Assembly (NCBI GenBank): GCA_903834195.1
Contig: CAILIB010000015.1
Span: forward strand, 53,146-117,145
Source of the DNA: an uncultured Candidatus Berkelbacteria bacterium
Lineage (GTDB): Bacteria; Patescibacteriota; UBA1384; CAILIB01
Reading direction: 5' to 3'
Length of the DNA: 64,000 nucleotides
Shown: one piece after another, positions 27,722-58,951 of the stretch
Numbering within the stretch: the first letter of the stretch is position 1
How the letters are laid out: each line of letters begins with the position of its first letter
Notes under the pieces: model-generated
Seen by the model: only the letters and a program-made list of their open reading frames with translations
The model's database searches: none
What the model was told of the DNA's origin: nothing
Position numbers and translations under genes: made by a program

Positions 27722-28462
27722 TTAGATCTCCTCAGCAATCTCCCAAAGTATTTCAAACACTTGTCGCATGGTTGTGTAGATTGAGGTAGATTCGATAACC
27801 ACACCGTGCATTTCACTTCCTCCGTATGTGAGGAGAGCAACCTTATTACCCCACAGAGCTGCCTCGCTAGGCATGTTCCATTCAGGTTTGATAAACCGCT
27901 GCTCATGGCGGCCATCTTTGTAGAGCTTGCCATACTTTTTCATCTCGGGAAGTCGTTTGACTATTTCTCGAATTTTAATCTTATGTCGGATGAGTTGTTT
28001 GGTGAAATCGTAATAATCTTGGTAATTCTTCACCCAATCCTCTCCAGATCCAAAGAAAAGTACTTCACGTGCCTCAGTGAGAAACTCTTGATGAATACTA
28101 TCAATTCCCTCTTTTCCTACAAAGAAGCGTACCCGAGGTTTGTCTGGACTACCTTGGTAGAGCGCTTCAAGGAGGGGAAGCTGTTCTTCAAACTGCTTGA
28201 GTCGTTCGGAGAGAATTTTTTGGATACGACGAGGGGGTACGGCACTATAACGATAGCGACCATTGCGAGATAGAGAAGTAATCAAGCCTTTCTCATCAAG
28301 CGTTCGCAAGATGTCATAGCAGTGAGTCCGGGGAATTCCAGCCTCGACAGCAATCTTTGTGGCACCAGATTCTCCTAACGCCAAAGCTGCTTTATATACG
28401 AGAGCCTCTTTCTCAGTAAACCCGAATTTTTGAAGAAGAATTATCAAGTCTTTTTCGTCCAT
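27722..28462 (-). CDS. TrmB-like regulator, paralog 2
   Basis: LQKFGFTEKEALVYKAALALGESGATKIAVEAGIPRTHCYDILRTLDEKGLI; ends FEILWEIAEEI. Confidence 0.75.
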   Translation of the reverse strand: MDEKDLIILLQKFGFTEKEALVYKAALALGESGATKIAVEAGIPRTHCYDILRTLDEKGLITSLSRNGRYRYSAVPPRRIQKILSERLKQFEEQLPLLEALYQGSPDKPRVRFFVGKEGIDSIHQEFLTEAREVLFFGSGEDWVKNYQDYYDFTKQLIRHKIKIREIVKRLPEMKKYGKLYKDGRHEQRFIKPEWNMPSEAALWGNKVALLTYGGSEMHGVVIESTSIYTTMRQVFEILWEIAEEI

Positions 28463-30175: not shown

Positions 30176-30934
30176 TTATATCTGCTTCGCTTGTTCCCAC
30201 AATTCCTCAAACCAATTTTGCATGCTCGTAGCGTAATCCTGCGACGTAGTTACCACGCCAAAACTTTCAGCAGCTGTGGTGGTCACCACTACTGTATTTC
30301 CATAAATCAGAATATTCGCTGGGCTTTGAAATCTTGAAGGAGCATAGCGTACATCACGTTGGCCGTCTTCGCCTGGGGCGTAGATTGTATCTTTCGGCTC
30401 CTGATTTCTCACACGAATAGCTCGCGTCCAAATCTTTGCCTCTGCCCGACGCTTTACCCAATCTTTTAGAAACCGTGCCCCAATAGCCTCCTCTATCTGC
30501 TGAGTTGAGCCAACATAGCAGATCTCCGTAGGGTGCACTAATAACATTTCCTCATAGATATCTTGCAACTCTTCACCCTTAAAGATGCGAACTTTGGGCT
30601 GTGTAGGCGTGTGCTCATAGAGCCGATTCAATTCTGGTACCAACTCGGCAAACGACTGACTATTCTCTTTGGCTTGCTCTTCTTTCTCTTTGAACTTGGT
30701 GAGAATAGTACGCGGCGGGTAGGGAAGATAGTGTTTACGCCCTCGACGTTCCAAAATTTCAATTAACCCCAGTTCATCTAATTTTTCTAAAAGGTAGGCA
30801 ACAGAAGTACGAGGCAACCCAACTTTCTCCGCAATGGGAACAATATTTGATTCGCCAAGTTCAAGGGAAGCCAGGTAGGTACGGGCTTCTTTTTCTCCTA
30901 ATCCAAGTTTTTTGAGGTATTCCGGCAAATCCAT
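30176..30934 (-). CDS. TrmB-like regulator, paralog 3
   Basis: MDLPEYLKKLGLGEKEARTYLASLELG...; ends FEELWEQAKQI. The start is set at ATG 30934 because the predicted promoter (30968-30996) lies inside the longer ORF. Confidence 0.75.
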   Translation of the reverse strand: MDLPEYLKKLGLGEKEARTYLASLELGESNIVPIAEKVGLPRTSVAYLLEKLDELGLIEILERRGRKHYLPYPPRTILTKFKEKEEQAKENSQSFAELVPELNRLYEHTPTQPKVRIFKGEELQDIYEEMLLVHPTEICYVGSTQQIEEAIGARFLKDWVKRRAEAKIWTRAIRVRNQEPKDTIYAPGEDGQRDVRYAPSRFQSPANILIYGNTVVVTTTAAESFGVVTTSQDYATSMQNWFEELWEQAKQI

Positions 30935-30967
30935 ATAATGACGAAAATATATGTCGTTAATTGAGTA

Positions 30968-30996
30968 ATTATACAGCATCAACCAAGAAAAGTCAA
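30968..30996 (-). promoter_or_regulatory. consensus promoter for TrmB paralog 3
   Basis: Minus strand reads TTGACT (30996-30991), 17-nt spacer, TATAAT (30973-30968). Confidence 0.7.
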
Positions 30997-35557: not shown

Positions 35558-36313
35558 TTATTTACACCCTTCCCAAATCCTCAAAAATTGTTTCCGCGTA
35601 AAGTTTGCTAGTTGTGCAGACTGTAAAACAATCATATTGCTCGATCCAGCCTGAATGGTCTGGTAACAAACCTGGTCACGCCATACCCACTGGTGAACAT
35701 TAGTAGTTAAAGGTTCTGGTGTATAGCGAAACTCGGTCACTGACCAGCCCACTTCTTCGTTATGCTTTTGTGTTCGCAAACCCTCAGGGAGTAGACAGCG
35801 GACTTTAACGCCGATATTTACTTGGCTTTCCAAATATTCGTGATAGAACTTTTCATCTAATTTGTACCAGTTCTCTAGGTTTCCAGATGAATAGAGGAAG
35901 AAATCATCATCAGTTTGTGCGGTATCCATAAAATGACGGTACCATTCCCGCATAGAAAGAGGGGTATCATACACAGTCACCAGGGGTACCTCAGCTGGAA
36001 TTGCCTGAATGTTAGTGAGGCTGGGAACAATGTTTTCAATTCTATCCTTGAGATCTTCTACAAGTGTCAAAAGCTGGCTAGGTGGGAGCGCCTGGTAATA
36101 GGGGCGCTTACCTTGAGAGACTTCTTTTATAAGGCCGCGGTCAAGTAAGTCAGGAAGTAGTAAGTACAAGGCCTGCCTACTGGTATTAAGGTTGCGTGCG
36201 GTTTCGGTAACGGTTGCTGGGCCACTGCGAAGTAAACCCAAGTAAAGCTCAGTTTGGTTACGGCTTAGACCTAAATACGAAAGGGTCTCATTGATGTAAC
36301 GGATATTTTTCAT
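35558..36313 (-). CDS. TrmB-like regulator, paralog 4 (closest to paralog 8)
   Basis: LSYLGLSRNQTELYLGLLRSGPATVTETARNLNTSRQALYLLLPDLLDRGLIKEV; ends FLRIWEGCK. Confidence 0.75.
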   Translation of the reverse strand: MKNIRYINETLSYLGLSRNQTELYLGLLRSGPATVTETARNLNTSRQALYLLLPDLLDRGLIKEVSQGKRPYYQALPPSQLLTLVEDLKDRIENIVPSLTNIQAIPAEVPLVTVYDTPLSMREWYRHFMDTAQTDDDFFLYSSGNLENWYKLDEKFYHEYLESQVNIGVKVRCLLPEGLRTQKHNEEVGWSVTEFRYTPEPLTTNVHQWVWRDQVCYQTIQAGSSNMIVLQSAQLANFTRKQFLRIWEGCK

Positions 36314-36411: not shown

Positions 36412-36448
36412 TGCGAATTCCAAACCTGCAAAGGTGGTGAACATTCAC

Positions 36449-37210
36449 ATGAACAATAAAACTGATTACAACCAACTCGCTGGAGATTTTACTGACTACA
36501 AAGCGAATAAGAATAGTATCGAATGGGTACAGGGTTACAATCGCTTGACTGGCCTTTTGGGATTCTCATTGAAGCCGGGTGATACCGTACTCGACTTTGG
36601 GTGCGGCACAGGAAACTATGCGCGCACGTTGAAGGAAACGTATCCTGGCCTCGTTGTTATCGGGGTAGACTCGGCGCAGTCAATGGTGGATGAGGCCCGT
36701 CGACTTGACCCTTCGGGAGATTATGTACTATACAACGGCGGGATTCAGGACGAGGACAATCTTAAAAGTTACTCAGGTAACTTGGAGGAGCTTGTTAATG
36801 GACGGGTTATTAATGCCGCTGTGGCTAACTTTGTTTTCTGTACAATGCTCAACCCATACGAGATCTTGGGAATCTGTAAAGAAATTCACAAGGTTTTAAA
36901 AACAGGATGCCCATTTTACATCATGGAAACCAATTGGCCTGTTGCTAACGGAAAGGATTACGGGCAATTTAGGTGCCTGCATTATCCTGAACTTAAGCAG
37001 TTCCAAGAGGTGGAGACTATTCTTCGCAAACCCGACGGAAGTGAGGTTCTTGTAACAGATTTATATCTGGGCGATACTTTTTACGGGCACGTTTTGGGAG
37101 ATATAGGAGTTTCGTGTACATACGAAAATGAACCAGAAAATGGAGTCTTTCGATCTCGTCACTACTGGGATAGTCCGATCATGCTTAGGAAGATTGTGTG
37201 GAAGGAGTGA
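36449..37210 (+). CDS. class I SAM-dependent methyltransferase (cargo of paralog 4)
   Basis: VLDFGCGTGNYA motif I. Start ATG 36449 (MNNKTDYN) parallels the paralog at 58952 (MNNTNYGD) and follows AAAGGTGG. Confidence 0.8.
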   Translation: MNNKTDYNQLAGDFTDYKANKNSIEWVQGYNRLTGLLGFSLKPGDTVLDFGCGTGNYARTLKETYPGLVVIGVDSAQSMVDEARRLDPSGDYVLYNGGIQDEDNLKSYSGNLEELVNGRVINAAVANFVFCTMLNPYEILGICKEIHKVLKTGCPFYIMETNWPVANGKDYGQFRCLHYPELKQFQEVETILRKPDGSEVLVTDLYLGDTFYGHVLGDIGVSCTYENEPENGVFRSRHYWDSPIMLRKIVWKE

Positions 37211-38118: not shown

Positions 38119-38883
38119 TTACACGTGTGCTTGTCCCCACACACCCTCAAAAAACATATGCATAGTCTGATAATACGAAGCACTCGAAATCAACATTGCG
38201 TATGGCCGTTCCTTGGTTTGCGAAAAAATAGCTACCTTATCGTCATACATGTGAATATGGCTTTCTGGCGTAAACCACTCGGGAGCGATTCGAGCTTCGC
38301 GGTTCTCACCCGGGGCAATACTCACTTTTTTGTATCCTGTCTTGGTGTATTCTTTAATATCCTTGGCAAGTCGGAGTGAAATGTACTTAATTTTCCGCTT
38401 GGCCACTTGTTCTAGGTAGTCTTCAATAAATGTGTTGCCCACATGACTGTGGCCAGAGGCATAGACAGGAATGGCACGGATTTCTTTTGCATTCGTCTGG
38501 AGTGATAGTCGAAAAACTTCCTTAATACCTTCAACTCCTTCAAACATCTGTACAGATGGCTTGGCATCCTCCTGCTTATATAAGGAAAACAGGAGTGGGA
38601 CGACGTCATCAACTTTCTTAAGCCTTGCCACCATGATTTCCTTTAGTCGGGCCGGAGAAGCGGCAGTGTAGTGCTGGCGCCGATTGCGTACAGTCATACT
38701 GATCAGACCAAGCTGACGGAAGCTCTCAAGGTAGTTATAGACAGTAGTACGTTTAATACCTGCCCGTTCAGCAATAGGGATGATGCTTGACTCTCCAAGT
38801 TCTACCATGGCTAAATACACCCGTGCCTCTTTATCGGTGAGGCCAGTTTCTTGGAGCGCGGTTATTAATTGGGTATTTTCCAT
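38119..38883 (-). CDS. TrmB-like regulator, paralog 5
   Basis: MENTQLITALQETGLTDKEARVYLAMVELGESSIIPIAERAGIKRTTVYNYL...; ends FEGVWGQAHV. The ORF-track ATG at 38904 abuts the predicted -10 box, so ATG 38883 is preferred. Confidence 0.75.
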   Translation of the reverse strand: MENTQLITALQETGLTDKEARVYLAMVELGESSIIPIAERAGIKRTTVYNYLESFRQLGLISMTVRNRRQHYTAASPARLKEIMVARLKKVDDVVPLLFSLYKQEDAKPSVQMFEGVEGIKEVFRLSLQTNAKEIRAIPVYASGHSHVGNTFIEDYLEQVAKRKIKYISLRLAKDIKEYTKTGYKKVSIAPGENREARIAPEWFTPESHIHMYDDKVAIFSQTKERPYAMLISSASYYQTMHMFFEGVWGQAHV

Positions 38884-38904
38884 AGTGTCTATTAATATAG
38901 ACAT

Positions 38905-38933
38905 ATTATAGCATTAACCTGATATCTAGTCAA
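38905..38933 (-). promoter_or_regulatory. consensus promoter for TrmB paralog 5
   Basis: Minus strand reads TTGACT (38933-38928), 17-nt spacer, TATAAT (38910-38905). Confidence 0.7.
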
Positions 38934-38961
38934 TTATATACTATAAATACTGTCTATATTA

Positions 38962-38990
38962 TTGACATTTAGCCAAAAAACGTGTATATT
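38962..38990 (+). promoter_or_regulatory. promoter for GC-rich methyltransferase
   Basis: TTGACA (38962-38967), 17-nt spacer, TATATT (38985-38990). Lies within the 17-mer TATATTATTGACATTTA (38955-38971). Confidence 0.65.
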
Positions 38991-39013
38991 TCCGCCAACG
39001 CTCAATTGAGAGT

Positions 39014-39862
39014 GTGAACGTTTACACAGCGACAGGAGCACAGTACTTACACATGAATATCTTAACTCTTACCACCGAAGGAAAGGCACGTATCGCACTG
39101 AGCGAAGGACTGCAGGACATCGTTGAGGGAGGCGGCTACGGTCGCATCCTCGGCCTTGGCCAGGCAGTCGCCGACGTTCAGGATGATGAGCCTATCATCG
39201 GCGATGAGGCTACAGAGTTCAGTCGTGAGGCAGAGCTTAACCCCTGGCGGTACCAATCGTTCGTCCGCACCGCGTGCGCCCTTGTTAGAGAAGCGGGACT
39301 TCAGGCTCCGTTTATCATCGACATGGGCTGCGGTCCGGCGATCCTCTCATCGATGATCGCCAAGGAGATTCCGACTGCCCAGGTAATGGGCATCGACCTC
39401 TCCGAGGACATGTTGGCAATTGCCAGCAGTACCGCGCGGACGTTTGGGGTAGCCGACAGGCTCAACCTGCACCGACACGACATGCGACTTGTCGCCGGAG
39501 GAGCCTCACGGCTTGCCGACCTTGTTGTGTCACGCAACATGCTGCATCGGGTTGAGGGCCTTAGCGATGCCCTCTACAAACTCGTTTCGGCCGCAAAGCC
39601 GAATGGGGGTATGGTTTGCCTCGCCGCCTTTCGCCAGGTCTCCGACCTGAATCCGAAAGGGCAAGCGGCGTTTGTCTCGGCTGTTCGAGCGCGAAGTGGT
39701 TATGAGAATTTGGAGCGCGCTTTTGTGCGTGCCTACATCTCCGCCCCAAGCTTCATACAGTATAGGCAGGCTGCCTTGGCAGTCGCAAACCGGCTCGATG
39801 TCGCAGACATGCAGGTGCGGGCAGGGAAGAACAATAACGTTGTGGTATTCTTCCGGCGTTAG
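39014..39862 (+). CDS. class I SAM-dependent methyltransferase, GC-rich (likely horizontally acquired)
   Basis: IIDMGCGPAILSS motif I, GIDLSEDML and VVSRNMLH motifs. Alternative start ATG 39053. Hand-counted GC is 60-68% in 60-nt windows, against about 38% in flanking DNA. Confidence 0.75.
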   Translation: MNVYTATGAQYLHMNILTLTTEGKARIALSEGLQDIVEGGGYGRILGLGQAVADVQDDEPIIGDEATEFSREAELNPWRYQSFVRTACALVREAGLQAPFIIDMGCGPAILSSMIAKEIPTAQVMGIDLSEDMLAIASSTARTFGVADRLNLHRHDMRLVAGGASRLADLVVSRNMLHRVEGLSDALYKLVSAAKPNGGMVCLAAFRQVSDLNPKGQAAFVSAVRARSGYENLERAFVRAYISAPSFIQYRQAALAVANRLDVADMQVRAGKNNNVVVFFRR

Positions 39863-40056
39863 GGTTTGGTCCCTCTGTGATCGAGTACGATCCGGCATAT
39901 CTGCCGTTAGCTCAATATTGTCGCTGAACACATATGCGGAATCAGTAGTGATGCTGACCTGGGGATACCAACATGGCCCAGACAAAAGGTGAGTAGAAGT
40001 GTTTCTTTTCCGGCTTAAGCAATTGCTTGAGCCTGATCTAGAGAGTCTTCTCTGTA

Positions 40057-41235
40057 ATGATGTTAGGACAGAACCATATGAGCGAATTAATTCAATTTTC
40101 TGGCGATTCAGCCAGTATTCGTAATCAACCCGTAGAAAAGGGTTTTTTAGTGCACATAGAATGTGCTTCTGGAGATGAAGCGTACGAAGTTGGTCGCACA
40201 AACCAAAAAGCAATGCTTGGCAGCGTGCGGGCTGAAAATGCTCCACAGTATCGCTTTACTCGAGAAGACTCTCTTGTGAATCTACGTGCTGCCGACCTTC
40301 GAGGTATACATACGTATCCTCACGACATTCATATGAAGGGGTTAGGCGGCAATGACCATCAGTATCTTATCGCTTCTAGCGAGGTAACCCGTACCTATGA
40401 GGCTGATGGAATCGAGACAGTGCGTGCGCCTGAATCTGGAGTGGCTTGTCTTACAGTTACTGCGGGTTTTCATGAGCAGTCCGGCCAAACGGTTGAATCT
40501 GCAACAGAAGCTGCATATACGAAGCTTTTTGAAAAAGTACAAGAGCTAAGAATGCACCCGCTTCGTATCTGGAACTACATGCCTAACATTAATGACGGTG
40601 CCGACAGTGAAGGAAATGGTGCGAGTGAGCTGTATAAGCAGTTCAATGCTGGTCGGCACAAAGCTTGGCAGGCGTACGATCCTGATTTTTCAGAGGTCTG
40701 TTCGGCAACCGGCATTGGAAATACTAACCCGTATAAAGGGATAGATATCACGTGCCTCGCCACGAAGCACCCGGTTATTCACTTGGATAACCCGAACCAG
40801 ATTCCGTTTTTGCAGTATGATGCCGAGCGTTTTGGGGTTCAACCATGTTCACGACGGGGAACAATACACCTTACCCCTGGCGGCATTGAGATCTATATTT
40901 CTGGTACTGCCAGTATTACAGGTCAGGACAATCGATTCGCTGGGGATATAGAACCAAAAGATATTCGGATGCAAACCAGGCAGACTCTTGAAAATATCCA
41001 GGCACTTGTCTCTCAAGAAAATCTGGCTGCATATGTAAGCGTAGATCAGGATATTCCTGAGTATCAACTCGCTGATCTCAAGGCACTTCGGGTGTACATA
41101 CGAAATGAAGAAGACCTTCCGATTATTCAGGAAGAACTTGAAGCTGCAGGAATTCCTGCAAATCAGATTATGTACCTTAAGGCAGATATTTGCCGAAAGT
41201 TACTTGATATCGAGATTGAGGCAATGATTGTTTAA
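40057..41235 (+). CDS. chorismatase-like enzyme (FkbO/Hyg5/XanB2 family, RidA-fold)
   Basis: RIWNYMPNIN...LYKQFNAGRHKAW and ISGTASITGQDNRFAGDIEPKDIRMQTRQTLENIQAL resemble conserved chorismatase/YjgF blocks as I remember them. Confidence 0.55.
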   Translation: MMLGQNHMSELIQFSGDSASIRNQPVEKGFLVHIECASGDEAYEVGRTNQKAMLGSVRAENAPQYRFTREDSLVNLRAADLRGIHTYPHDIHMKGLGGNDHQYLIASSEVTRTYEADGIETVRAPESGVACLTVTAGFHEQSGQTVESATEAAYTKLFEKVQELRMHPLRIWNYMPNINDGADSEGNGASELYKQFNAGRHKAWQAYDPDFSEVCSATGIGNTNPYKGIDITCLATKHPVIHLDNPNQIPFLQYDAERFGVQPCSRRGTIHLTPGGIEIYISGTASITGQDNRFAGDIEPKDIRMQTRQTLENIQALVSQENLAAYVSVDQDIPEYQLADLKALRVYIRNEEDLPIIQEELEAAGIPANQIMYLKADICRKLLDIEIEAMIV

Positions 41236-41238
41236 TGT

Positions 41239-41270
41239 AAGGCCACCTGAATCTGGTGGCCTTCTTTTTA
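41239..41270 (+). terminator. rho-independent terminator
   Basis: AAGGCCACC-TGAATCT-GGTGGCCTT followed by CTTTTTA. Confidence 0.8.
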
Positions 41271-41344
41271 TATTAGACACTTTTCAGTACACATCGTACG
41301 AATGTAGCCTGGTGTAGAATCTATAAAGTGGGTATCATTACACC

Positions 41345-41986
41345 ATGAATGAGTTTCCTACGAACTACACAAACCCACCGTCGCCAGAGCAGCTAACACC
41401 TCGAGTTGAAGAGGTTCTTCCTGAGCTGCTTTCTGAAGAACAAATCAAGAAGATTGAGGCGTTATATAAAGATGCCTATGAGAGTCGCTATGTAGGCGAT
41501 GAATGGTTTGAGGAGTCAACCATGAAAAACACATCCTTGGTTGCTTTGTATAAACAGGGGGAGGATATTTTGGCAGCCATTAACTTCAACCAGGAGCGGA
41601 TGATTTCAATTGCTGTGCTTTTTAATGCAACTAATCGAGGTGCTATCCTAATAAGTTTCTTGGAAGAGTTAACTAAAACTCATCCGCATGCCTGGATTAC
41701 GGTTGCTATTGATGCCCCAGCTATGCTCAAGGTTATGGCTAACAAGCGGCTTGATTTTGATCTTATTAATGATCCTGCACATATCCAAGCACTTTTTCAG
41801 TCTACCCAAGGAACTGATAGTCCTGTAGAGCTTGTTATGAGTGAAGAGACAGTGCCAGGTCTAACTCCTAAGCAGGCTGAGAGTGATATAGTACTTCCTG
41901 CATTTTCTCGAGAAAATTCTTACCACGGTGCAGAATACAAGCAACTTGTGTTTCAACATAGGGTTGAGCTGCAAGACTTGAACTAA
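41345..41986 (+). CDS. hypothetical protein
   Basis: 213-aa ORF. No family recognised. Confidence 0.4.
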   Translation: MNEFPTNYTNPPSPEQLTPRVEEVLPELLSEEQIKKIEALYKDAYESRYVGDEWFEESTMKNTSLVALYKQGEDILAAINFNQERMISIAVLFNATNRGAILISFLEELTKTHPHAWITVAIDAPAMLKVMANKRLDFDLINDPAHIQALFQSTQGTDSPVELVMSEETVPGLTPKQAESDIVLPAFSRENSYHGAEYKQLVFQHRVELQDLN

Positions 41987-42073
41987 TTGAGTGTGTAGGT
42001 TTTTTAGATCAGCACCTGTACCATACATTAATTGAGAAACTGATAAGATAATTGTGAATAGCCCATCAATCAC

Positions 42074-43186
42074 ATGTTCTTAATCGCATCCCGTAATCTG
42101 TTCCAAGAGAAAAGTCGCCTTGCAGTTAGTGTGGGCGGTGTTGCCTTTGCAATTATCCTCATGGTTGTTCTTTTTGGAATCTACAATGGCTCCATTGATC
42201 GGGATGTAAAGTTTATACAAGAAAGTCCGGCAGATATTGTCATACTGCGCCAGGGAATGGTTGATATGTACAAGGGCGTTCCACTTGTGTCTCTCGCAGA
42301 TATTGAAAAGATTCGTCAGGAACCGGGTGTACAAAGTGTCACGCCTGTTATCTCTTTGCGTCCAGCTGTAGAAAAAGATGACAAACAGTACAATCTAATC
42401 ATCTCAAGTTTTGATCCTTCAGACCTTAGTCAGGGTCCTTGGGCGCTGTCGCAGGGGACAAAGCAGATTACTGATGATGAAATACTCATTCCAAGTGCAT
42501 TGGCTAAGAAGCTGGGCAAGTCGGTGGGTGATACATTGATCTTTTCTGAGTCTACTAAGTCGTGGCGAATTGCTGGATTAGTGCCAGATGCGTCAAGTTT
42601 TGGCAATAATTACTCCTGGATAACGTATTCTGCAGCGCAATCATTTATCACTGTTCCAAATACGGTAAGTTTCGCGTTTGTGAAACTTACTCAGCCAAGC
42701 GATGTTGCACACGAGGCCAAGGTTTTGCAGGCAAAATATCCTCAAATAAATGTGCGTGACAAAGCAGCGCTGGTTCAAGAAGAGAAAACAAGCTTAGGTG
42801 ATTCGTTCCTACCAATTTTGCAAGCTATTCTTGCAATTGCAGTTCTGATTGGTACGGCCGTAATTGGCATCACTATCTATACGTCTGTCCTGGATAAATC
42901 GAGGGAGGTTGGAATCCTCAAGGCAATTGGGATTAGTAATAAACAGTTGTACCTGACTTCACTTACACAAGCGCTACTCACAACAGTGTTAGGGCTTCTT
43001 GTTGGTATTCTTCTCTCGTTTGCTGTTGGGTGGTTTATATCTACGGCGCTTGATCTGCCGGTTCAAATAAGCCAGTGGACGATTGCATGGGTATCAGGAT
43101 TGGCCCTCGTCATGGGATGCATAGCTTCACTTATTCCCGTCAAACGACTTGCTTCAATTGATCCAGCTGAAGTATTTAAATCATGA
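42074..43186 (+). CDS. ABC transporter permease, FtsX/MacB type
   Basis: TM1, a large extracytoplasmic domain, then 3 C-terminal TM helices (FtsX-like). 4-nt overlap with the ATPase gene. Confidence 0.8.
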   Translation: MFLIASRNLFQEKSRLAVSVGGVAFAIILMVVLFGIYNGSIDRDVKFIQESPADIVILRQGMVDMYKGVPLVSLADIEKIRQEPGVQSVTPVISLRPAVEKDDKQYNLIISSFDPSDLSQGPWALSQGTKQITDDEILIPSALAKKLGKSVGDTLIFSESTKSWRIAGLVPDASSFGNNYSWITYSAAQSFITVPNTVSFAFVKLTQPSDVAHEAKVLQAKYPQINVRDKAALVQEEKTSLGDSFLPILQAILAIAVLIGTAVIGITIYTSVLDKSREVGILKAIGISNKQLYLTSLTQALLTTVLGLLVGILLSFAVGWFISTALDLPVQISQWTIAWVSGLALVMGCIASLIPVKRLASIDPAEVFKS

Positions 43187-43857
43187 ACGTCATAACCGCA
43201 CAGAACATAACGAAGATTTACGGTACGGGTGAGTCAAAAGTCACTGCGCTTGATGATGTTTCTTTGAATGTCGCTGCGGGCGAGGTTGTCCTCATTATGG
43301 GTCCTTCCGGCTCTGGGAAAACTACACTTCTCCTTGTACTAGGTACGCTTTTACATCCTGATTCCGGGGTTGTGACGATTAATGAACAAAATGTGCACGA
43401 GCTCTCTAACCGTGATCTACCAGGGCTTCGGCTAAGGAAAATTGGGTTTATCTTTCAACATTTTAACTTGCTTTCGGCCCTTACGGCTCAAGAGAATGTA
43501 ATGGTTCCGCTATTAATAGCCGGAGTAAAAAGTTCACAGACAAAAAAGAAGGCGGGAGAACTCTTGAAGCGCCTCGGCGTTGCTAAGCGGGCTGGAAGTC
43601 TTCCTCAGAATTTATCAGGTGGCGAAAAACAGCGTGTGGCCATTGCTCGTGCTATGGTTGGTAGTCCTAGCATCCTGCTTGCTGATGAGCCAACGGCCAA
43701 TCTTGATTCAAAAACTGGTCATGAAGTTGTCGAAATACTCTACAAGTACGCTAAAGAAGAGGGTAAGGCTGTCGTTATAGTGAGTCATGATCAGCGTATT
43801 CGAGATATAGCTGACAGGGTGGTCCTCATTGAGGATGGGAAGTTAAAAGAAGTTTGA
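43183..43857 (+). CDS. ABC transporter ATP-binding protein (MacB/LolD-like)
   Basis: Walker A GPSGSGKTT, signature LSGGEKQR, Walker B ILLADEPT. Confidence 0.9.
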   Translation: MNVITAQNITKIYGTGESKVTALDDVSLNVAAGEVVLIMGPSGSGKTTLLLVLGTLLHPDSGVVTINEQNVHELSNRDLPGLRLRKIGFIFQHFNLLSALTAQENVMVPLLIAGVKSSQTKKKAGELLKRLGVAKRAGSLPQNLSGGEKQRVAIARAMVGSPSILLADEPTANLDSKTGHEVVEILYKYAKEEGKAVVIVSHDQRIRDIADRVVLIEDGKLKEV

Positions 43858-43888
43858 TATTTCCTTTAAGCATGAGCTACTCAAGCTT

Positions 43889-44281
43889 TTGTATGAAGAA
43901 ATCCAGATTCCAGTTCGCGGTGTGGTTGCACAGCACCGGTTCAGTAAATTGCCAGTTCAGTATCCAACAGAAATAAGAGCGTTGTTGGATACAACCGATA
44001 TTGTCGATTTTACCAATTTTCTCCAGATTGAGCGCAATGGAAAATGGCTCATTGTGAACGTCACCTGGGATTCACCACTTAAAAAACTTGGCTTTCCGGT
44101 TAATGAAAATTGGGATGGACTTAGTGATATGCGGATGATCGTTGAAGAGATGTGGAATCCTGAAGATTCAATCGCATTTAAAAAAGAAAAAATCGCTGCC
44201 CTGCCAGAGCATGTTCAAAAAGCACGAGAAGAGTTTCTTGCTCAGCTCACTTCTTGGCTTGAGCAGGTTCGGGGAGAGTAA
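43889..44281 (+). CDS. hypothetical protein
   Basis: 130-aa ORF with a non-ATG start. No family recognised. Confidence 0.35.
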   Translation: MYEEIQIPVRGVVAQHRFSKLPVQYPTEIRALLDTTDIVDFTNFLQIERNGKWLIVNVTWDSPLKKLGFPVNENWDGLSDMRMIVEEMWNPEDSIAFKKEKIAALPEHVQKAREEFLAQLTSWLEQVRGE

Positions 44282-44368
44282 TTTCTGGGATTATTCTGAA
44301 TGATTGTTTGGAATTTTAAGTAATTCAAAGATAAAATAAGAATATATATTTATCGTCAACTTAGTTTA

Positions 44369-45790
44369 ATGTTCATGCTTAACGACGAGTCTCCAAAAAG
44401 TGCCGAAGAAGTCCCGTTACAGGCTCAGTCGGAAGTTACTGAAATATCTAGTAACCCTTTTTCTGACAAAAAAAGCGTATCCAAAGCCGGTATATTTGCT
44501 GCAGTTATTATTCTGCTAGTAATTGGTGGAGTAGCTGTATTTGCTGCTCGGAAATCTAAAACGAATAGCACGGATTCTGTTCAAGCATCTCCAACGCTCG
44601 GCGCATCGATGACTCCAGGCCAGGGTAGTCAGGGTGTAGCAGTACCACCGTCAGGAGCAATTTCTGATGTAGACAATACACTTCCTAGTTGCGGGGCAAA
44701 TCCGTTGCTTCACACCGTGCCTCTTGCTGATGATCATCTTCTTGATGTTTCGCCTCTGGGCAATATTAATCCGCCTGGGCATACAGTGCCTTCAGATCAC
44801 ATTGGTCTTGGGTTGACGGTGGTTACAACGCCTTCCAGCGACACAAACCAGCCTGGAAATGCTAAATCAACCACTATTCAGGCTTCAGTATTTGCTCCTG
44901 CTGATATCACGATTTTCAAGATTCATGCCCAAACTGTAACTGAAAATGGCAAGTCAAATAGTGATTATAGTATTTTCTATCATCCATGCCGTGAAGTTAC
45001 TATGTACAACAATCACATTCCGGTACTCAACACTGACTTGATGAGCTTTATGACCGCTCATAAGTCTGAGGCCACGTGTCAAACTCAGGCAAATACAGGT
45101 TCTACGACCAATGAGTTTTGTGATTACGCAATTACCTATAAGGCCAAAGAGGGGGCAGTTCTGGGTACGGCAGGAGGAGCTGGTCAGGCTACTGTAGGAA
45201 TTGATTACGGGTTGTATGATACTCGAACAACTCCACTCGCGTATTTAAATACTGAACTTGCGAAAACTGCTCAATCAACTGAAATTCTGCACAGTGCCTG
45301 CCCAATTGATTACTATCCAGCTGATATACAAGCCATGCTGTATGCCAAGTTGGATCAGACGGGCACAAAATCTGATCACCCTTCATGCGGAACCATTATG
45401 CAGGATAAAGCAGGAACAGTTCAGGGTAACTGGTATGTAAAGGGATCTGCTTTAGAAAACTGGCCAACGGTGTTTGCAGTTCTGCATAATTCTACCGATG
45501 CCTCAGTTGGAGTTGTTTCTATTGGTGGAACTATCGCTGACCCTGGAATGATTCGGTTCAATGTTGCTAAAACAGGAACCACAAACCTTGAACCTAGTTT
45601 AACTCAGGCTGGAACACTCTACTGCTATACGACAAATATTGCTGGGCCTAATGGTACAGTTTCAGCTACTAATCAGGTCTTGTTACAGCTTTCTGCCGAT
45701 GGAACTTTGCAAGCTGAAGATCAAGCAGGAAATTGTACGGGTAGTTTGGCGTTCAAAAGCCCAACTACGTATACACGCAATGCTCATTGA
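44369..45790 (+). CDS. membrane-anchored extracytoplasmic protein, unknown function
   Basis: 473 aa. A single N-terminal TM (AGIFAAVIILLVIGGVAVFAA) followed by a Ser/Thr/Gly-rich ectodomain. Confidence 0.45.
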   Translation: MFMLNDESPKSAEEVPLQAQSEVTEISSNPFSDKKSVSKAGIFAAVIILLVIGGVAVFAARKSKTNSTDSVQASPTLGASMTPGQGSQGVAVPPSGAISDVDNTLPSCGANPLLHTVPLADDHLLDVSPLGNINPPGHTVPSDHIGLGLTVVTTPSSDTNQPGNAKSTTIQASVFAPADITIFKIHAQTVTENGKSNSDYSIFYHPCREVTMYNNHIPVLNTDLMSFMTAHKSEATCQTQANTGSTTNEFCDYAITYKAKEGAVLGTAGGAGQATVGIDYGLYDTRTTPLAYLNTELAKTAQSTEILHSACPIDYYPADIQAMLYAKLDQTGTKSDHPSCGTIMQDKAGTVQGNWYVKGSALENWPTVFAVLHNSTDASVGVVSIGGTIADPGMIRFNVAKTGTTNLEPSLTQAGTLYCYTTNIAGPNGTVSATNQVLLQLSADGTLQAEDQAGNCTGSLAFKSPTTYTRNAH

Positions 45791-45877
45791 TTGGGTTTTC
45801 TATTAAAGAAATTAGGGTATCTCGATTAGAGCTAGACTAGTAACGTTTGCAGTAAGGTAGGCGCAGTCCTAAATACA

Positions 45878-45911
45878 GAAACGACCCTTGATATACATCG
45901 AGGGTCGTTTC
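45878..45911. terminator. bidirectional hairpin between convergent genes
   Basis: GAAACGACCCT-N12-AGGGTCGTTTC, an 11-bp perfect stem. Confidence 0.7.
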
Positions 45912-45950
45912 TTCAGCAAAAGAATAAGGGACCGCAGTTGCGGTCTCCTT

Positions 45951-46841
45951 CTAATTTTGGTGCGGCGCACGCACCTCCTGTTCAATCGGGCATCCATCAA
46001 TAAAGAGTGCTCGGTAGACAGCTTCGGCGACTTTGAGAGGAGGTGCAAATGTTGGCGGAAAACCACTCCACATATTGTCTTGTTTAGCGAGAACATCCAT
46101 GACTTTGCGAACCGATTCAGGGTCGTAGAAACCCGTATCGATGCCGCCGGGGCGAACCTCAAATGGGGTAATCCCCATATCGATGAGTTCTGCATGTATT
46201 CCTCTGACAAAGCCAGTTAGTGCGTGTTTTGCTGCAACATGTGCACTCCCGAATCTGTACCCGCGAACTCCGCTCATCGAAGTGATGAAGACGATTTTGG
46301 CGGGCAGATCTTTTTTGACCTGCTCCCGAAGGTGTGGCAGGAAATGCGTGAGTAAGCAGTGGGTTGCAACAACAATTCCTAGTTCTACTTCCAGTAATTT
46401 TGGGCTAATTTTCTCTACTGGGAGGTAGGGATTTTCGTCAGGCAGATCGTATGTTCCGGCTCCAAGTCCTAAACTTTGGATCCAGGAAAACGGGCGACCA
46501 TCCAGTGCTTTAATGATTTCAATTGCGCCAGTGTCAGTTGTTGCATCAGCCGCACAATATGAAATCAGATCTGCATTGCATCCTAAGTCGATTAAGCCGT
46601 TGCGGATGTTTTCGAGTGAATCACTATTGCGCGCTACCATGAGTACAGGTACGTCATGGCGGGAAAGGTGAGCGGCACACGCTGTGCCGATATTCATTTT
46701 GTGGTCGATACCACAAATGGGGATAGAAGTGTGGGTTGGCTCGTTGTCGTGTGTGAAAACGTGACGAACAGGTTTTGTTCCACAGCCTGTAATTACACAA
46801 GTAGTTCTTATTTGCATTTTCTTCTCAAAGTTCCGAGGCAC
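45951..46841 (-). CDS. atypical short-chain dehydrogenase/reductase-like protein
   Basis: Rossmann N-terminus (VITGCGTKP) and an SDR-like active-site region ITSMSGVRGYRFGSAHVAAKHAL, with His where the catalytic Tyr normally sits. Confidence 0.65.
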   Translation of the reverse strand: MPRNFEKKMQIRTTCVITGCGTKPVRHVFTHDNEPTHTSIPICGIDHKMNIGTACAAHLSRHDVPVLMVARNSDSLENIRNGLIDLGCNADLISYCAADATTDTGAIEIIKALDGRPFSWIQSLGLGAGTYDLPDENPYLPVEKISPKLLEVELGIVVATHCLLTHFLPHLREQVKKDLPAKIVFITSMSGVRGYRFGSAHVAAKHALTGFVRGIHAELIDMGITPFEVRPGGIDTGFYDPESVRKVMDVLAKQDNMWSGFPPTFAPPLKVAEAVYRALFIDGCPIEQEVRAPHQN

Positions 46842-46951
46842 ATTATAAGAATACAGGAAAAATATTCAATAATTATGAACTTTATTTAATTTACTATACA
46901 GTTTACAGGTTTAATGATTTGTGTTAGTATTCGTCGTAAATAACGACTTTT

Positions 46952-47707
46952 ATGAGCAAAAGTATCAATCTTACTCTTAGGGAAGCAGGTCTAAGCGCAA
47001 AAGAAGCAGCTCTCTATGTAGCAATGCTCAGTTTGGGAGAGGTCGGAATTACCGACTTAGCTGCAAAAGCAAAGTTGAAGAAGTCCACAGCCTATATGGT
47101 AGTGGAGAGTTTGAGAGAAAAAGGGTTGGTTGGTTCGTTTCGTTCCCGCTCGGGAACAAAGTTTGTGGCAACTTCTCCGAAACAGTTTTTGGACCGCGCG
47201 CAGAAACAGCTTGATGAATTACAAACTGTGATTCCTCGGCTTGAAGCTCTCCAGCGCTCACAAGGTGTAGAGCCGACCATCTCATACTATCGGGGGAAGG
47301 AAGGGTATTTTATCGCTGTTGCCGACTTCCTCAAGGTTCATAACTCAACAGTACGGCAAATGGGTTCGCTGACAGAAATTCAGAGTGTTATTGGTGCGGA
47401 GTACGATACGACGCAGATAGTGCCAGAGCGAATCAAGAATAATATCTTTTTACGTGCGCTCTACTTTCCCTCAGAAATGAACGAAGTTGCCAAACGAGAT
47501 CATACAGGGGAACTGCGCGAAATTCGCCTGATGCCAGATCAGTTCTTCCACCGTGCCTATACCATGATTTATGGTGATAAAGTTGCAATTGTGAGTAGTC
47601 GCAAGGAGCTTGTCACTGTAATTATTGAGAGTGCAGAGGTTGCAGAGAGTGAGCGGCAGAAGTTTGATTTGCTTTGGAACTTGCTGGGGGAGAGCGCTCG
47701 GCTATAG
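46952..47707 (+). CDS. TrmB-like regulator, paralog 6
   Basis: LREAGLSAKEAALYVAMLSLGEVGITDLAAKAKLKKSTAYMVVESLREKGLV; ends FDLLWNLLGESARL. Confidence 0.75.
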   Translation: MSKSINLTLREAGLSAKEAALYVAMLSLGEVGITDLAAKAKLKKSTAYMVVESLREKGLVGSFRSRSGTKFVATSPKQFLDRAQKQLDELQTVIPRLEALQRSQGVEPTISYYRGKEGYFIAVADFLKVHNSTVRQMGSLTEIQSVIGAEYDTTQIVPERIKNNIFLRALYFPSEMNEVAKRDHTGELREIRLMPDQFFHRAYTMIYGDKVAIVSSRKELVTVIIESAEVAESERQKFDLLWNLLGESARL

Positions 47708-47780: not shown

Positions 47781-48215
47781 ATGCAAGACATCATCGAACG
47801 AAACATTACAGTAAAAGCGCCGAAAGAGCGTGTGTATAGCGCAATTGCTGACCCAACCCAAGTTACAACCTGGTTTCCAGATGCCGTTGAAGGGAAGTAC
47901 GAAGTAGGTGAGCAGCCAATCTTCGACTTTGGTACCGAAGGAAAAAGCCGTATCTACATCGTCGATGCTAAGCCGTTTGAGTACTTTTCCTATCGTTGGG
48001 TAGCAGGTGAAACAGGGGTTGTAGACGATGTTACAAAAGTCGCTAATACTCTTGTAGAGTTCATGATTGAGGAAATGGGCGGTGAAACTAAAGTGACCGT
48101 GAAAGAGTCTGGATTTAGCGCGTATGCCGCTGATGTTGCTCAGGAAAAGTTCGACATGAACTCTGGTGGTTGGGAGTACATGATGAACCGTCTCGAAAAA
48201 TCTCTGACAGACTAA
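47781..48215 (+). CDS. SRPBCC/AHSA1 (START-like) family protein
   Basis: ITVKAPKERVYSAIADPTQVTTWFPD... is typical of the Aha1/BPI-like SRPBCC fold. Paired with the ArsR gene. Confidence 0.7.
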   Translation: MQDIIERNITVKAPKERVYSAIADPTQVTTWFPDAVEGKYEVGEQPIFDFGTEGKSRIYIVDAKPFEYFSYRWVAGETGVVDDVTKVANTLVEFMIEEMGGETKVTVKESGFSAYAADVAQEKFDMNSGGWEYMMNRLEKSLTD

Positions 48216-48526
48216 TGCCCACAGCAGAGATTTTCAGAGCTCTTGGAGATCCAATCCGCCTCGAGATGGTGCAGCGCCTCTCGAGCGGATCTTCATATAC
48301 ACTCACGAGTGTCTCAACTAACCTTGGTATTTCTCGCCAGGGTGCGCGCAAGCATTTGGACGTGCTTCAACATGCACATATCGTTGTTTTGAAGCCGCAT
48401 GGCAGAGATGTGTTTGTAGAACTTGAGCCAGCAACATTCGACGCTGCCAAAGAGTTTATTTTGAACGTGGAGAAACAGTGGGATCGTCGATTGGCGAAGT
48501 TAAAATTGTTTGTTGAAGAGGATTAA
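48215..48526 (+). CDS. ArsR-family HTH regulator
   Basis: IFRALGDPIRLEMVQRL...LGISRQGARKHLDVL. ATG overlaps the upstream stop (TAATG). Confidence 0.8.
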   Translation: MPTAEIFRALGDPIRLEMVQRLSSGSSYTLTSVSTNLGISRQGARKHLDVLQHAHIVVLKPHGRDVFVELEPATFDAAKEFILNVEKQWDRRLAKLKLFVEED

Positions 48527-51287: not shown

Positions 51288-52091
51288 TTACGACCAACTC
51301 TGGATAATTGCTGAATGCTCATCCTGAGATCGTGCCCACATGTATTCGAAAATATTGCGAAATGTTTCGGCAATTGATTCATTTTCTATCACTGTAATGA
51401 TCTGAGGATTACGCGTGGCGGCAAGTGCAATACAGTTATTCCAAATAAGGATCTCGGCAGGGTTATTAAGGAACTGAGGGTCTACGAGGCGGCGTTCCAC
51501 CAGAAGTTCAGGGTTATCGTTTAGGATATGCTTTTTGGTGTTAGGAAGTTCACGTCCAATAATACGATTTTTAATATGAAGGCGCGCACGTTCAAGTCGC
51601 ATTGTGCGAATGTAGGCACGCGTTTCCTCGTCATCTTGCATACTTCCTTTTGATGACACAATCGTAAGTTGCTCCTTAGTTTTCGAGCGCAAAATCTCAC
51701 CATACACAGTCTTCACTCCTTCCAAACCTTCATATATGCGAACTGACGGTGCGTTCGTTGTGGTGTTATATGTGGATACCAAATGGGGAAGAAGAGTTTC
51801 TAGAAGCGATGCATTTTCTTGAACTTGTACTTGTTGCTCGCGAATTAAGTCACGAAATTTTGCTGGGTCAGTAACTCGGTAAAGTGCTTTTGGCTTTATT
51901 TGTGATTGCTCAACAATTCCACGAGAAATAAGTGCGGTTAAGATATTATACGCACTTCCTTTTTTAGTGTTTGTCTTTTTGCTGATTTCAGCGACAGATG
52001 ACTCACCATCTTCGAGGAGGGTGGAGTATGTGATTGCTTCTTTATCAGAAAGGCCAAAACGTTGTAAGTCAGTGTTTGAGATTGATTCCAT
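51288..52091 (-). CDS. TrmB-like regulator, paralog 7
   Basis: LQRFGLSDKEAITYSTLLEDGESSVAEISKKTNTKKGSAYNILTALISRGIV; C-terminal FEYMWARSQD. Confidence 0.75.
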   Translation of the reverse strand: MESISNTDLQRFGLSDKEAITYSTLLEDGESSVAEISKKTNTKKGSAYNILTALISRGIVEQSQIKPKALYRVTDPAKFRDLIREQQVQVQENASLLETLLPHLVSTYNTTTNAPSVRIYEGLEGVKTVYGEILRSKTKEQLTIVSSKGSMQDDEETRAYIRTMRLERARLHIKNRIIGRELPNTKKHILNDNPELLVERRLVDPQFLNNPAEILIWNNCIALAATRNPQIITVIENESIAETFRNIFEYMWARSQDEHSAIIQSWS

Positions 52092-52317: not shown

Positions 52318-52453
52318 GGGGACGAACGGGTTCGACAGATGATGTTTGGGTTAGTGTGGGGTGGTGCCCGGTCTGGGTAAATGCCTATACAACAACCAGG
52401 CTGCTAACCGCCGCGTCGTTTGGAAGCGAGTTCAACTCTCGCCGTCTCCACCA
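52318..52453 (+). ncRNA. ssrA: miniature tmRNA-like RNA (complete tRNA-Ala-like domain, only 136 nt)
   Basis: GGGGACG/CGTCTCC acceptor with G3:U70, GGGTTCGAC 5' element, T arm GCGAG-TTCAACT-CTCGC, discriminator A plus CCA. The possible tag region ends ...CAGGCTGCT. There is no space for pseudoknots PK2-PK4. Confidence 0.6.
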
Positions 52454-58052: not shown

Positions 58053-58811
58053 TTATTTCTTTGCACTATCCCAAATCTCCATAAACTGTTTCCGGGCAAA
58101 GAAAGCAAGCTCCTTAGACTGAACCACAATTAAATTTGTAGCATTACCTTGAATAGTTTGATAGCAAACCTGATCATTCCAAATCCATTGCTGTACTTTT
58201 GGGCTAAGTGATTGTGACGTATAGCGAGTCTCTGTAACCGACCAGCCAACTTCCTCGTTATGTTCTTCCGACTTTTTACCTTCAGGAAGCAGACAGAGTA
58301 CGTTAATACCGCGTTTTACCTGTTGCTCCATGTAATTGGTGTAGAAGTCTTTGTCGAGTTTATACCAACTCTCCAAATTTCCACTAGAGTACACATAAAA
58401 GTCATCACCAGGTTTAGCTTTCTCTAAAAAGTATCGGTACCAATCGCGCATCGAGAGAGGTGAGTCGTAAATAGTTACGAGCGGAACTTCACTCGGCGTG
58501 TTTTGCATGTTTGTAAGAGCGGGGACTACTGCATCGAGGCGGGCTTTTAAATCTTCAACCAAAACAAATAATTGGCTTGGATGAAGTGCCTGGTACAGTG
58601 TGCGTTTTGCGTAACGCACTTCTTTGATGAGTCCGCGATCGAGGAGTTCGGGTAACAAAAGATAGATTGCCTGGCGACTTGTGTTTAATGTACGCGCCAT
58701 TTGGGCCACATTCGCGGTGCCAGCCTGCAAAAACTCTAAGAAGAGTTTTGTTTGGCTCCGGCTTATTCCTAGCCGGTTTAGCGTTTCGTAAATAACTTTT
58801 GTATCTTCCAT
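58053..58811 (-). CDS. TrmB-like regulator, paralog 8 (closest to paralog 4)
   Basis: MEDTKVIYETLNRLGISRSQTKLFLEFLQAGTANVAQMARTLNTSRQAIYLLLPELLDRGLIKEV; ends FMEIWDSAKK. Start chosen by alignment with paralog 4 (the ORF-track GTG at 58832 is possible). Confidence 0.75.
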   Translation of the reverse strand: MEDTKVIYETLNRLGISRSQTKLFLEFLQAGTANVAQMARTLNTSRQAIYLLLPELLDRGLIKEVRYAKRTLYQALHPSQLFVLVEDLKARLDAVVPALTNMQNTPSEVPLVTIYDSPLSMRDWYRYFLEKAKPGDDFYVYSSGNLESWYKLDKDFYTNYMEQQVKRGINVLCLLPEGKKSEEHNEEVGWSVTETRYTSQSLSPKVQQWIWNDQVCYQTIQGNATNLIVVQSKELAFFARKQFMEIWDSAKK

Positions 58812-58951
58812 GTGTACATAATAGTATGACACATTTACGACTCTTAATCAAGTGAAACTGAAAAATTGACAATACACCGCTTGTTAGTTTTTACGATTTA
58901 TTATATTGTTACGCCTGTCTGAAAGCTCGTTATGAGCTCTAGGAGGAACAA

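Follow-up and report, generated by a model that had tools for sequence, protein, structure and literature searches.

Characterised chorismatases belong to actinomycete antibiotic clusters and to proteobacterial pigment and diffusible-factor pathways. The presence of a predicted chorismatase gene on a contig of an uncultured Candidatus Berkelbacteria bacterium (CAILIB010000015.1, positions 53,146 to 117,145; this whole 64-kb stretch is referred to as the window) raises the question of what such an enzyme would produce there, and which of the surrounding genes act together with it. The gene is one of ten located at positions 38119-47707, between the genes of two TrmB-family regulators, TrmB5 and TrmB6. 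A preliminary interpretation made from the nucleotide sequence and its open reading frames (ORFs), hereafter called the sequence-only reading, had considered these genes as a possible cluster for the synthesis and export of a methylated or reduced hydroxybenzoate. All ten ORFs were found in place, and their family assignments held in Pfam and NCBIfam scans (Table 1). The present analysis points to a smaller functional unit (38119-41273), composed of the genes encoding TrmB5, an S-adenosylmethionine (SAM)-dependent methyltransferase (MT5) and the chorismatase. We consider it somewhat more probable than an even chance that this unit is a TrmB5-repressed two-gene operon, whose predicted products would convert chorismate into 3-hydroxybenzoate and then methylate its ring.

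The ten proteins, together with five proteins encoded by flanking genes of the window, were compared by tblastn with about 50 loci fetched from relatives (designated by L-numbers). This set comprised every Patescibacteria-type chorismatase locus that was found and the loci around TrmB5 orthologs; a metagenome scan with a chorismatase profile contributed one new Patescibacteria-type locus. A word-index search with the methyltransferase returned only four proteins and missed the orthologs of 35-47% identity that were later found by tblastn. The TrmB5-methyltransferase-chorismatase triad was present in four divergent lineages, i.e. in the window, in L007 (90%, 77% and 76% amino acid (aa) identity, respectively), in L052/53 (67%, 47% and 34%, with the two enzyme genes 2 nt apart) and in L011 of a “Patescibacteria group bacterium” (51%, 35% and 33%). 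A TrmB5 ortholog (79%) adjoins a chorismatase gene (50%) once more in L002/03, where genes for 62-aa and 395-aa proteins of unknown function replace that of the methyltransferase.

No homologs of the 213-aa protein, the FtsX-type permease, the 130-aa and 473-aa proteins or the short-chain dehydrogenase/reductase (SDR) were encoded beside the chorismatase of any relative in these loci. The ATPase of the ATP-binding cassette (ABC) transporter matched only L024, L035 and L052/53, at the 25-32% identity of generic ABC similarity. Co-occurrence was thus observed for three of the ten genes and failed for the other seven, and the proposed ten-gene make-and-export cluster was not borne out. Adjacency beyond chance applies only to the genes of TrmB5, the methyltransferase and the chorismatase; the remaining gene order is a plain observation.

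The 392-aa product of the third gene of the triad scored well above the gathering score (27 bits) of Pfam family PF21168. Sequence matches to structures in the PDB covered residues 142-391 and were closer to Hyg5 (5AG3, E 2e-29, 106 bits) than to FkbO (4BPS, E 2.5e-17, 66 bits). An AlphaFold2 model built with 16 homologs (predicted local distance difference test score, pLDDT, 84.9; predicted template modelling score, pTM, 0.86) was aligned by Foldseek with 5AG3, 5A3K and 4BPS over 366-378 columns, with target-normalised template modelling (TM) scores of 0.82-0.85. The N-terminal lobe, which is invisible to sequence comparison, was thereby matched to Hyg5 and FkbO by its fold. RidA/YjgF structures covered a single lobe of the model (query-normalised TM of about 0.27), while Hyg5 and FkbO fit its whole length; a plain RidA deaminase, named in the sequence-only reading as an identity that would refute it, was therefore ruled out.

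The active site is retained as well. Residue Glu386 is aligned with Glu334 of Hyg5, an essential acid that protonates the enolpyruvyl methylene group (PMC7170507), while Gly283 (in the motif SGTAS) and Cys379 and Arg380 (in DICR) correspond to Gly240, Cys327 and Arg328 of Hyg5. All four residues are invariant across the 16 homologs. About 38 positions, including the catalytic Glu, SGTAS and the Cys-Arg pair, are invariant between Patescibacteria and proteobacterial family members. Profile, fold and active-site comparisons therefore agree with the chorismatase-like designation of the sequence-only reading, and the protein is assigned as a genuine FkbO/Hyg5-type chorismatase with predicted enzymatic activity.

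FkbO carries Ala at both positions corresponding to Gly240 and Cys327 of Hyg5. The Gly/Cys pair is said, after Hubrich et al. 2015 (the 5AG3/5A3K paper), to mark the Hyg5 type that forms 3-hydroxybenzoate. On the basis of these residues, the predicted product of the window enzyme is most likely 3-hydroxybenzoate, which is a preference rather than an established identity.

Shorter chorismatase homologs (258-287 aa) were also distinguished in Saccharimonadales, Berkelbacteria and other Patescibacteria. They are devoid of the whole N-terminal lobe and retain the SGTAS, C-R and E-x-E motifs. The forms of 258-271 aa in L005/6 (= L009; Saccharimonadales), L008 and L010 (Berkelbacteria) share about 50% identity with the C-terminal two-thirds of the window protein, and tblastn detected neither TrmB5 nor the methyltransferase in these loci. 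Their neighbours differ: L005/6 and L008 share an upstream gene for an XRE-type regulator, and the downstream gene encodes a PRK-family kinase in L005/6 and a LysE exporter in L008. An AAA_33 kinase is additionally encoded near the short form of L005.

The only strong structural relatives of MT5 are the aminocoumarin methyltransferases NovO (5MGZ, E 7.8e-21) and CouO (5M58, E 2.5e-18). Residues 59-268 of MT5 align to residues 4-209 of these enzymes, with 33% identity over 213 aa. The motif S173-R174-N175-x-x-H178-R179 and residue F206 are invariant in the window protein and in four Patescibacteria orthologs; they match R116, N117, H120 and R121 of NovO, and its F147, respectively. In CouO, His120 acts as the general base and Arg121 stabilises the phenolate (both residues were validated by mutagenesis), substrate placement is aided by Arg116 and residue 117, and a stacking contact joins Phe147 to His120; the mechanism described is a base-assisted deprotonation of the phenol with subsequent C-methylation (PMC5289526). 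MT5 looks like such a phenol-activating ring methyltransferase, and we predict it to be an aromatic C-methyltransferase. An obvious candidate for its substrate would be the hydroxybenzoate formed by the product of the adjacent gene. The part of the sequence-only reading that foresaw a methylated hydroxybenzoate is consequently reasonable, given the co-conserved NovO/CouO-like methyltransferase, whereas its reduction and export are not supported, as neither the SDR nor the transporter is conserved.

The label of a GC-rich methyltransferase was accurate: the GC content of the gene is 0.577 (0.643 at third codon positions) vs 0.439 for the window. The excess is common to the orthologs in L007 (0.59) and L011 (0.59), and the chorismatase gene of L011 has a GC content of 0.57. 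Genes for recombinases, integrases or type IV secretion are located close to several of the cassettes. Both features fit a horizontal spread of the cassette, which looks, and probably is, mobile; the methyltransferase may possibly be of actinobacterial origin.

TrmB5 is regarded as a TrmBL2-like one-component regulator. Its model (AlphaFold2, pLDDT 90.2) combines a winged helix-turn-helix (HTH) with a long dimerisation helix and a C-terminal domain that is PLD-like. The best matching folds in the PDB were TrmBL2 (5BPD, E 3e-14) and TrmB (3QPH), and the C-terminal domain matched NucT/PLD. The TrmB and TrmBL1 equivalog models of NCBIfam gave 29-34 bits over the N-terminal region only (cut-offs 600-650), and the sugar-binding C-terminal domain of TrmB/TrmBL1 proper was not recovered for TrmB5 in the NCBIfam and fold searches, the latter indicating the shorter architecture of TrmBL2.

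The two best sigma-70-like sites of the segment 38000-48000 share the 130 bp between trmB5 and the methyltransferase gene, where they are arranged back to back. The trmB5 promoter-like site consists of TTGACT, a 17-nt spacer and TATAAT with an extended -10 TG. Between its -10 box and the start codon there is a perfect palindrome, TGTCTAT-N4-ATAGACA, whose exact form occurs once in the window and whose core TGTCT..N..TAGAC is invariant in all eight aligned lineages. On the opposite side, the methyltransferase promoter consists of the -35 box TTGACA (38962-38967), a 17-nt spacer and TATATT (38985-38990), and a related operator-like element, TGTCTATATTATTGACA (38951-38967), extends over this -35 box. 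The -35 core ATTGA is again invariant in the eight lineages, and the upstream element TGTCTATA is retained in most of them. The palindrome and the -35 site are conserved even in L048, L049 and L051, where the TrmB5 ortholog faces other cargo. When up to three mismatches were allowed, the whole search gave 5 hits vs 3.2 expected, so that the exact site alone is meaningful; at this threshold the segment 41-47 kb contained no further copy, and none preceded the genes of the transporter or the SDR. A search for comparable palindromes in the intergenic regions of the other TrmB genes gave only trivial AT-rich repeats and was uninformative. From these sequence features we infer that TrmB5 is a locally acting, autoregulated repressor that would use the predicted operators and respond to a ligand.

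One of these loci, L048 (6001-6768), encodes a TrmB5 homolog of 91% identity on a second, 8.5-kb contig of ERZ1426828, the assembly to which the window also belongs. It keeps the palindrome and the -35 site, and the methyltransferase-chorismatase cargo is absent from it. A second strain, or else a recent paralog with swapped cargo, is indicated by this finding.

The spacer between the methyltransferase and chorismatase genes is predicted to form a structured RNA (-74.7 kcal/mol, z = -3.74; none of 200 shuffled sequences folded as well). It can be aligned with the 274-nt spacer of L007, including the hairpin GGCTTAAGC...GCTTRAGCC, and is absent from L052. No riboswitch or known RNA was detected in the leader or the spacer by Rfam at E up to 1 (38800-41400), and neither a terminator nor a strong promoter was found within 39863-40056. 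The strongest terminator-like site of the segment 38000-48000 has its stem at 41239-41263 and a T-rich tail, and begins 4 nt past the stop codon of the chorismatase gene. Seven distinct contexts were available from relatives; in five of them (L002, L004, L007, L011 and L052) the next gene is convergent, so the chorismatase gene is the last of its unit there; the following gene lies on the same strand in L005/6 (PRK) and L008 (LysE). The site at 41239-41273 is therefore proposed to mark the end of the operon. Alignments with orthologs also led to corrections of start codons: ATG 38883 (254 aa), which is conserved in orthologs, is the most likely start of TrmB5, while the methyltransferase may start at ATG 39053 (269 aa), as its orthologs do, and the chorismatase at ATG 40078 (385 aa).

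The proposed course of events would be as follows. A TrmB5 dimer would bind the palindrome and the related site over the opposite -35 box, and would keep both trmB5 and the two-gene operon repressed as long as no small-molecule ligand releases it. The chorismatase would then split chorismate into pyruvate and a hydroxybenzoate, most likely 3-hydroxybenzoate. The His-Arg pair of the methyltransferase would deprotonate the phenolic hydroxyl, and the methyl group of SAM would be transferred to the ring carbon in the ortho or para position, giving a methyl-hydroxybenzoate as the end product. This order of reactions is the presumed one, and the product might serve as a signal, an antioxidant or an allelochemical.

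Several observations weigh against this interpretation. The chorismatase reached 148 bits (E 3.9e-43) with the NCBIfam model TIGR04444, below the curated cut-off of 325, which places it on a divergent branch of the family. The type of product cannot be read safely from a chorismatase sequence (PMC3949708), and a CH-IV subfamily making only 4-hydroxybenzoate exists (PMC12925505). The residues that form the coumarin pocket of NovO (F164, W170, M174 and W178) are replaced in MT5 by A, G, L and F, so a different aromatic substrate is to be expected, the protein is termed NovO/CouO-like and not an ortholog, and O-methylation instead of C-methylation would be conceivable. The two enzyme genes are separated by a 194-nt gap. 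L004 encodes the closest full-length chorismatase after that of L007 (72% identity), yet it lies among unrelated neighbours, with neither TrmB5 nor the methyltransferase beside it, and the TrmB5 orthologs of L048-L051 (89-91%, and 69%) carry other cargo, so that the link between TrmB5 and the cassette is frequent and not obligatory. Finally, the source of chorismate is questionable; Patescibacteria are described as having reduced genomes from which many essential pathways are missing (PMC11665869).

A different role is conceivable for the same three genes. Host-derived chorismate, or a related enolpyruvyl compound, might be cleaved mainly for its pyruvate, with the methyltransferase detoxifying the released phenol or an external one and TrmB5 sensing it. 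Dependence on hosts for metabolites is assumed for these organisms (PMC11665869), and every chorismatase reaction also releases pyruvate (PMC4685789). A TrmB gene with a divergent methyltransferase gene occurs at least three times in the genome, which suits inducible modules for the modification of small molecules, and the roughly 84 kb of the contig that were inspected showed no downstream consumer of a hydroxybenzoate such as a ligase, polyketide synthase (PKS) or nonribosomal peptide synthetase (NRPS). Nevertheless, a phenol-activating methyltransferase is paired with a phenol-producing enzyme in four lineages, for which a two-step pathway is the simpler explanation, and free chorismate is not known as a metabolite exchanged in abundance. 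Such a salvage role appears doubtful to us. It is also conceivable that the chorismatase fold serves another substrate (e.g. isochorismate or another enolpyruvyl ether) and that the methyltransferase acts on the resulting product. The divergent position of the enzyme, with about 26% identity to Hyg5, the presumed absence of the shikimate pathway, and the structural plasticity indicated by those homologs of the phylum that have no N-terminal lobe speak for this possibility, but the invariant positions shared with proteobacterial enzymes argue for a retained active site, and a changed substrate seems quite unlikely.

Two further explanations concern the extent and integrity of the unit. That a single locus for biosynthesis and export extends over all ten genes, trmB5 and trmB6 included, with the SDR as a tailoring enzyme and the MacB-type transporter as the exporter, is suggested by seven consecutive genes on one strand (39014-45790) with short gaps, by the exporter-type domains of the permease and the DevA/LolD-like ATPase, and by the LysE-family gene of the distant L008, which makes export plausible in itself. 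This arrangement is nonetheless very improbable, considering that the downstream proteins lack counterparts beside the relatives' chorismatases, that a strong terminator precedes their genes in the window and convergent genes follow in most other contexts, that the TrmB5 palindrome is not repeated before them, and that TrmB6 and the SDR constitute a divergent pair of their own, the TrmB6 ortholog of L011 (50% identity) facing an unrelated gene for a 359-aa protein. A chance adjacency, or the decaying and now functionless remnant of a horizontally acquired element, would account for the foreign composition of the methyltransferase gene (0.58 vs 0.44) and for the variable, orphan-gene-rich surroundings; against this, the reading frames are intact, catalytic residues, promoter and operator sequences are conserved, and the arrangement recurs in four lineages at 33-77% protein identity, which renders a remnant extremely improbable. 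The favoured interpretation thus remains that of a TrmB5-controlled pathway from chorismate to a ring-methylated hydroxybenzoate. Its extension, in which chorismate taken from a host cell would be turned by a mobile cassette into a C-methylated hydroxybenzoate that acts as a diffusible signal or inhibitor between symbiont and host, is speculative and on balance unlikely.

Features of the locus and of related elements are summarized in Table 1.

Table 1. Coordinates of the predicted genes and sites of the locus, of the TrmB paralogs of the window with their cargo, and of the short chorismatase homologs
Feature	Coordinates	Strand	Evidence or remarks
TrmB5 regulator	38119-38904 (ORF); conserved start ATG 38883	-	PF01978, 51.7 bits
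MT5, class I SAM methyltransferase	39014-39862	+	Methyltransf_25/12/31/11 matches
FkbO/Hyg5 chorismatase, 392 aa, long three-lobe form	40057-41235	+	PF21168, 71 bits
213-aa protein	41345-41986	+	single-sequence family scan: no match
MacB_PCD + FtsX permease	42074-43186	+	PF02687, 69.5 bits; PF12704, 64.6 bits
ABC ATPase	43183-43857	+	4-nt overlap with permease gene
130-aa protein	43889-44281	+	family scan: no match
473-aa protein	44369-45790	+	family scan: no match
SDR (TrmB cargo)	45951-46841	-	family scan
TrmB6	46952-47707	+	PF01978, 44.9 bits
Palindrome, operator-like, TGTCTAT-TAAT-ATAGACA	38886-38903	.	
trmB5 promoter-like site	38905-38933	-	11/12 consensus matches
Second operator-like site TGTCTATATTATTGACA and methyltransferase promoter	38951-38990	+	11/12 consensus matches
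Methyltransferase/chorismatase spacer, predicted structured RNA	39863-40056	+	RNA fold vs shuffles
Intrinsic terminator (predicted), AAGGCCACC-TGAATCT-GGTGGCCTT then CTTTTTATAT	41239-41273	+	9 pairs, 6 G-C
TrmB paralogs	21558-22310, 27722-28462, 30176-30982, 35558-36313, 38119-38883, 51288-52091, 58053-58832	-	
TrmB paralog	46952-47707	+	
TrmB cargo, SAM methyltransferases	36434-37210, 39014-39862, 58952-59647		
TrmB cargo, radical-SAM-like	22479-23981		
Short chorismatase homologs, L005/L006/L009	10001-10816		
Short chorismatase homolog, L008	397-1212		
Short chorismatase homolog, L010	9027-9812		
Short chorismatase homolog, L011	9992-10855		

The gene that follows the terminator encodes a protein with no direct match in Pfam or the PDB. 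Its family is rare (26 representatives at 50% clustering among 1.84 billion) and GNAT-like, as 8 of 20 members match GNAT models; profile matches to acetyltransferases in the PDB were weak. The copy in the window has lost the acetyl-CoA motif Q/R-x-x-G-x-G/A, with NATNRGAIL in place of the F/YQGQGLG of its relatives. The next two genes (42074-43857) encode a MacB-type (MacB/FtsX, type VII) ABC transporter without an assignable substrate; the ATPase gave 243 bits with DevA (cut-off 296) and 226 bits with LolD. For the 473-aa protein, the PDB as well as Pfam yielded no match. The “YxxxK” motif of the SDR reads H-V-A-A-K by eye, i.e. Tyr is replaced by His. A predicted promoter at 46842-46869 implies that this protein starts downstream of GTG 46841, possibly at ATG 46817, and the public gene call, which starts at 46697, would drop the Rossmann glycine motif. 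We regard the GNAT-like gene and the genes of the transporter, the SDR, TrmB6 and the proteins of 130 and 473 aa as lineage-specific neighbours outside the pathway. An anti-phage defence system was considered and rejected, as PADLOC gave only generic matches to ABC, HTH and methyltransferase domains. A conserved second module beside the cassette was also ruled out: the genes for a 359-aa protein in L011 and a 354-aa protein in L052 are mutually unrelated.

The sequence-only reading had described the ten genes as bracketed by two TrmB paralogs. No unit is defined in this way, as the window contains eight such paralogs and three more are encoded just past its right edge on the same contig; the bracketing follows from the high density of regulator genes here and does not delimit a cluster. 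Most of the paralogs are divergently paired with a single cargo gene (Table 1), as TrmB6 is with the SDR, and the TrmB/methyltransferase pairing is repeated in L052. Such regulator-plus-cargo modules appear to have undergone an expansion specific to this lineage. A gene for an AHSA1/START-like protein paired with one for an ArsR-type HTH protein (47781-48526) has a counterpart in a second ArsR and AHSA1 pair past the right edge of the window, and constitutes another repeated small regulator/ligand-binding module of the region.

Downstream of, and divergent from, one TrmB paralog, Rfam placed a transfer-messenger RNA (tmRNA) gene at 52318-52453 (66 bits, above the gathering score). The match is 136 nt long yet spans positions 1-374 of the model, and ARAGORN predicted no tmRNA in the window; the site might represent a tmRNA gene in reduced, split or partial form. 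A C-type lectin surface protein of 870-890 aa followed by a sortase (18150-21454) is syntenic with positions 4824-8069 of L004, which suggests that the two genomes are related despite the different contexts of their chorismatase genes.

For both the chorismatase and TrmB5, every homolog with a taxonomic name comes from Patescibacteria (Saccharimonadales, Berkelbacteria, Peregrinibacteria, Nomurabacteria, Paceibacterota and a “Patescibacteria group” bacterium), and a scan of GTDB representatives with the chorismatase recovered Saccharimonadales, Berkelbacteria and a “Patescibacteria group” bacterium. The other genes of the window, encoding sortases, the C-type lectin surface protein and housekeeping functions, are compatible with this phylum. 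No shikimate (aro) genes were seen in the Pfam tables for about 84 kb of the 129-kb contig, which says little about the whole genome, and our literature search found no paper linking chorismatases to Patescibacteria.

If the proposed pathway is correct and draws its chorismate from a host, it would represent a minimal secondary-metabolite route, fed by a primary metabolite of the host, within a phylum that is considered to possess next to no biosynthesis. The conserved pair of chorismatase and phenol methyltransferase would provide a concrete small molecule to be sought in symbiont-host co-cultures, and would raise a metabolic question, namely the origin of chorismate. The significance of the cassette would rise substantially if chorismate synthesis proved to be missing from the genome and the host to be affected by the product. 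TrmB5 and TGTCTAT-N4-ATAGACA, found in eight lineages, offer a rare testable regulator-operator pair for the phylum. Many duplications of this regulator/cargo design seem to have taken place in the genome. The consequence for annotation is that a speculative cluster of ten genes is trimmed to a unit of three.

Comparison with known systems shows both common and distinct traits of each component. The window chorismatase shares the three-lobe RidA-like fold of Streptomyces Hyg5 (CH-II; 5AG3/5A3K) and FkbO (CH-I; 4BPS), but it is only about 25-26% identical to them in the structural alignment and its N-terminal lobe is about 40 residues longer. Hyg5 and FkbO are found in actinomycetes, whereas the window enzyme is encoded by a Patescibacterium, outside any PKS/NRPS cluster. 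The stand-alone chorismatases XanB2 (CH-III) of Xanthomonas and ArcB of Azoarcus yield free 3- and 4-hydroxybenzoate as a diffusible factor or pigment precursor (PMC3949708), and thereby fit the scenario of a small diffusible aromatic compound in the present case. XanB2, however, belongs to a xanthomonadin/aryl-polyene cluster in organisms with the shikimate pathway, while the window contains no such cluster and its enzyme is associated with another regulator and a methyltransferase partner.

TrmB5 has the domain order and length (about 255-260 aa) of TrmBL2 of Thermococcales (5BPD). It differs from the TrmBL2 and TrmB proteins of these archaea in being bacterial, in its identity of 15-18% and, compared with TrmB proper, in the missing sugar-binding domain; unlike a chromatin-like global binder, it appears to be a local, operator-specific regulator. 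MT5 shares the His-Arg pair and the equivalents of R116, N/H117 and F147 with NovO and CouO, the C8-methyltransferases of aminocoumarin synthesis in Streptomyces, but possesses an N-terminal extension of 45-58 residues, and its presumed substrate is a simple hydroxybenzoate instead of an aminocoumarin. The enzyme families of the cassette are thus known, while their pairing, their regulator and the host phylum are new.

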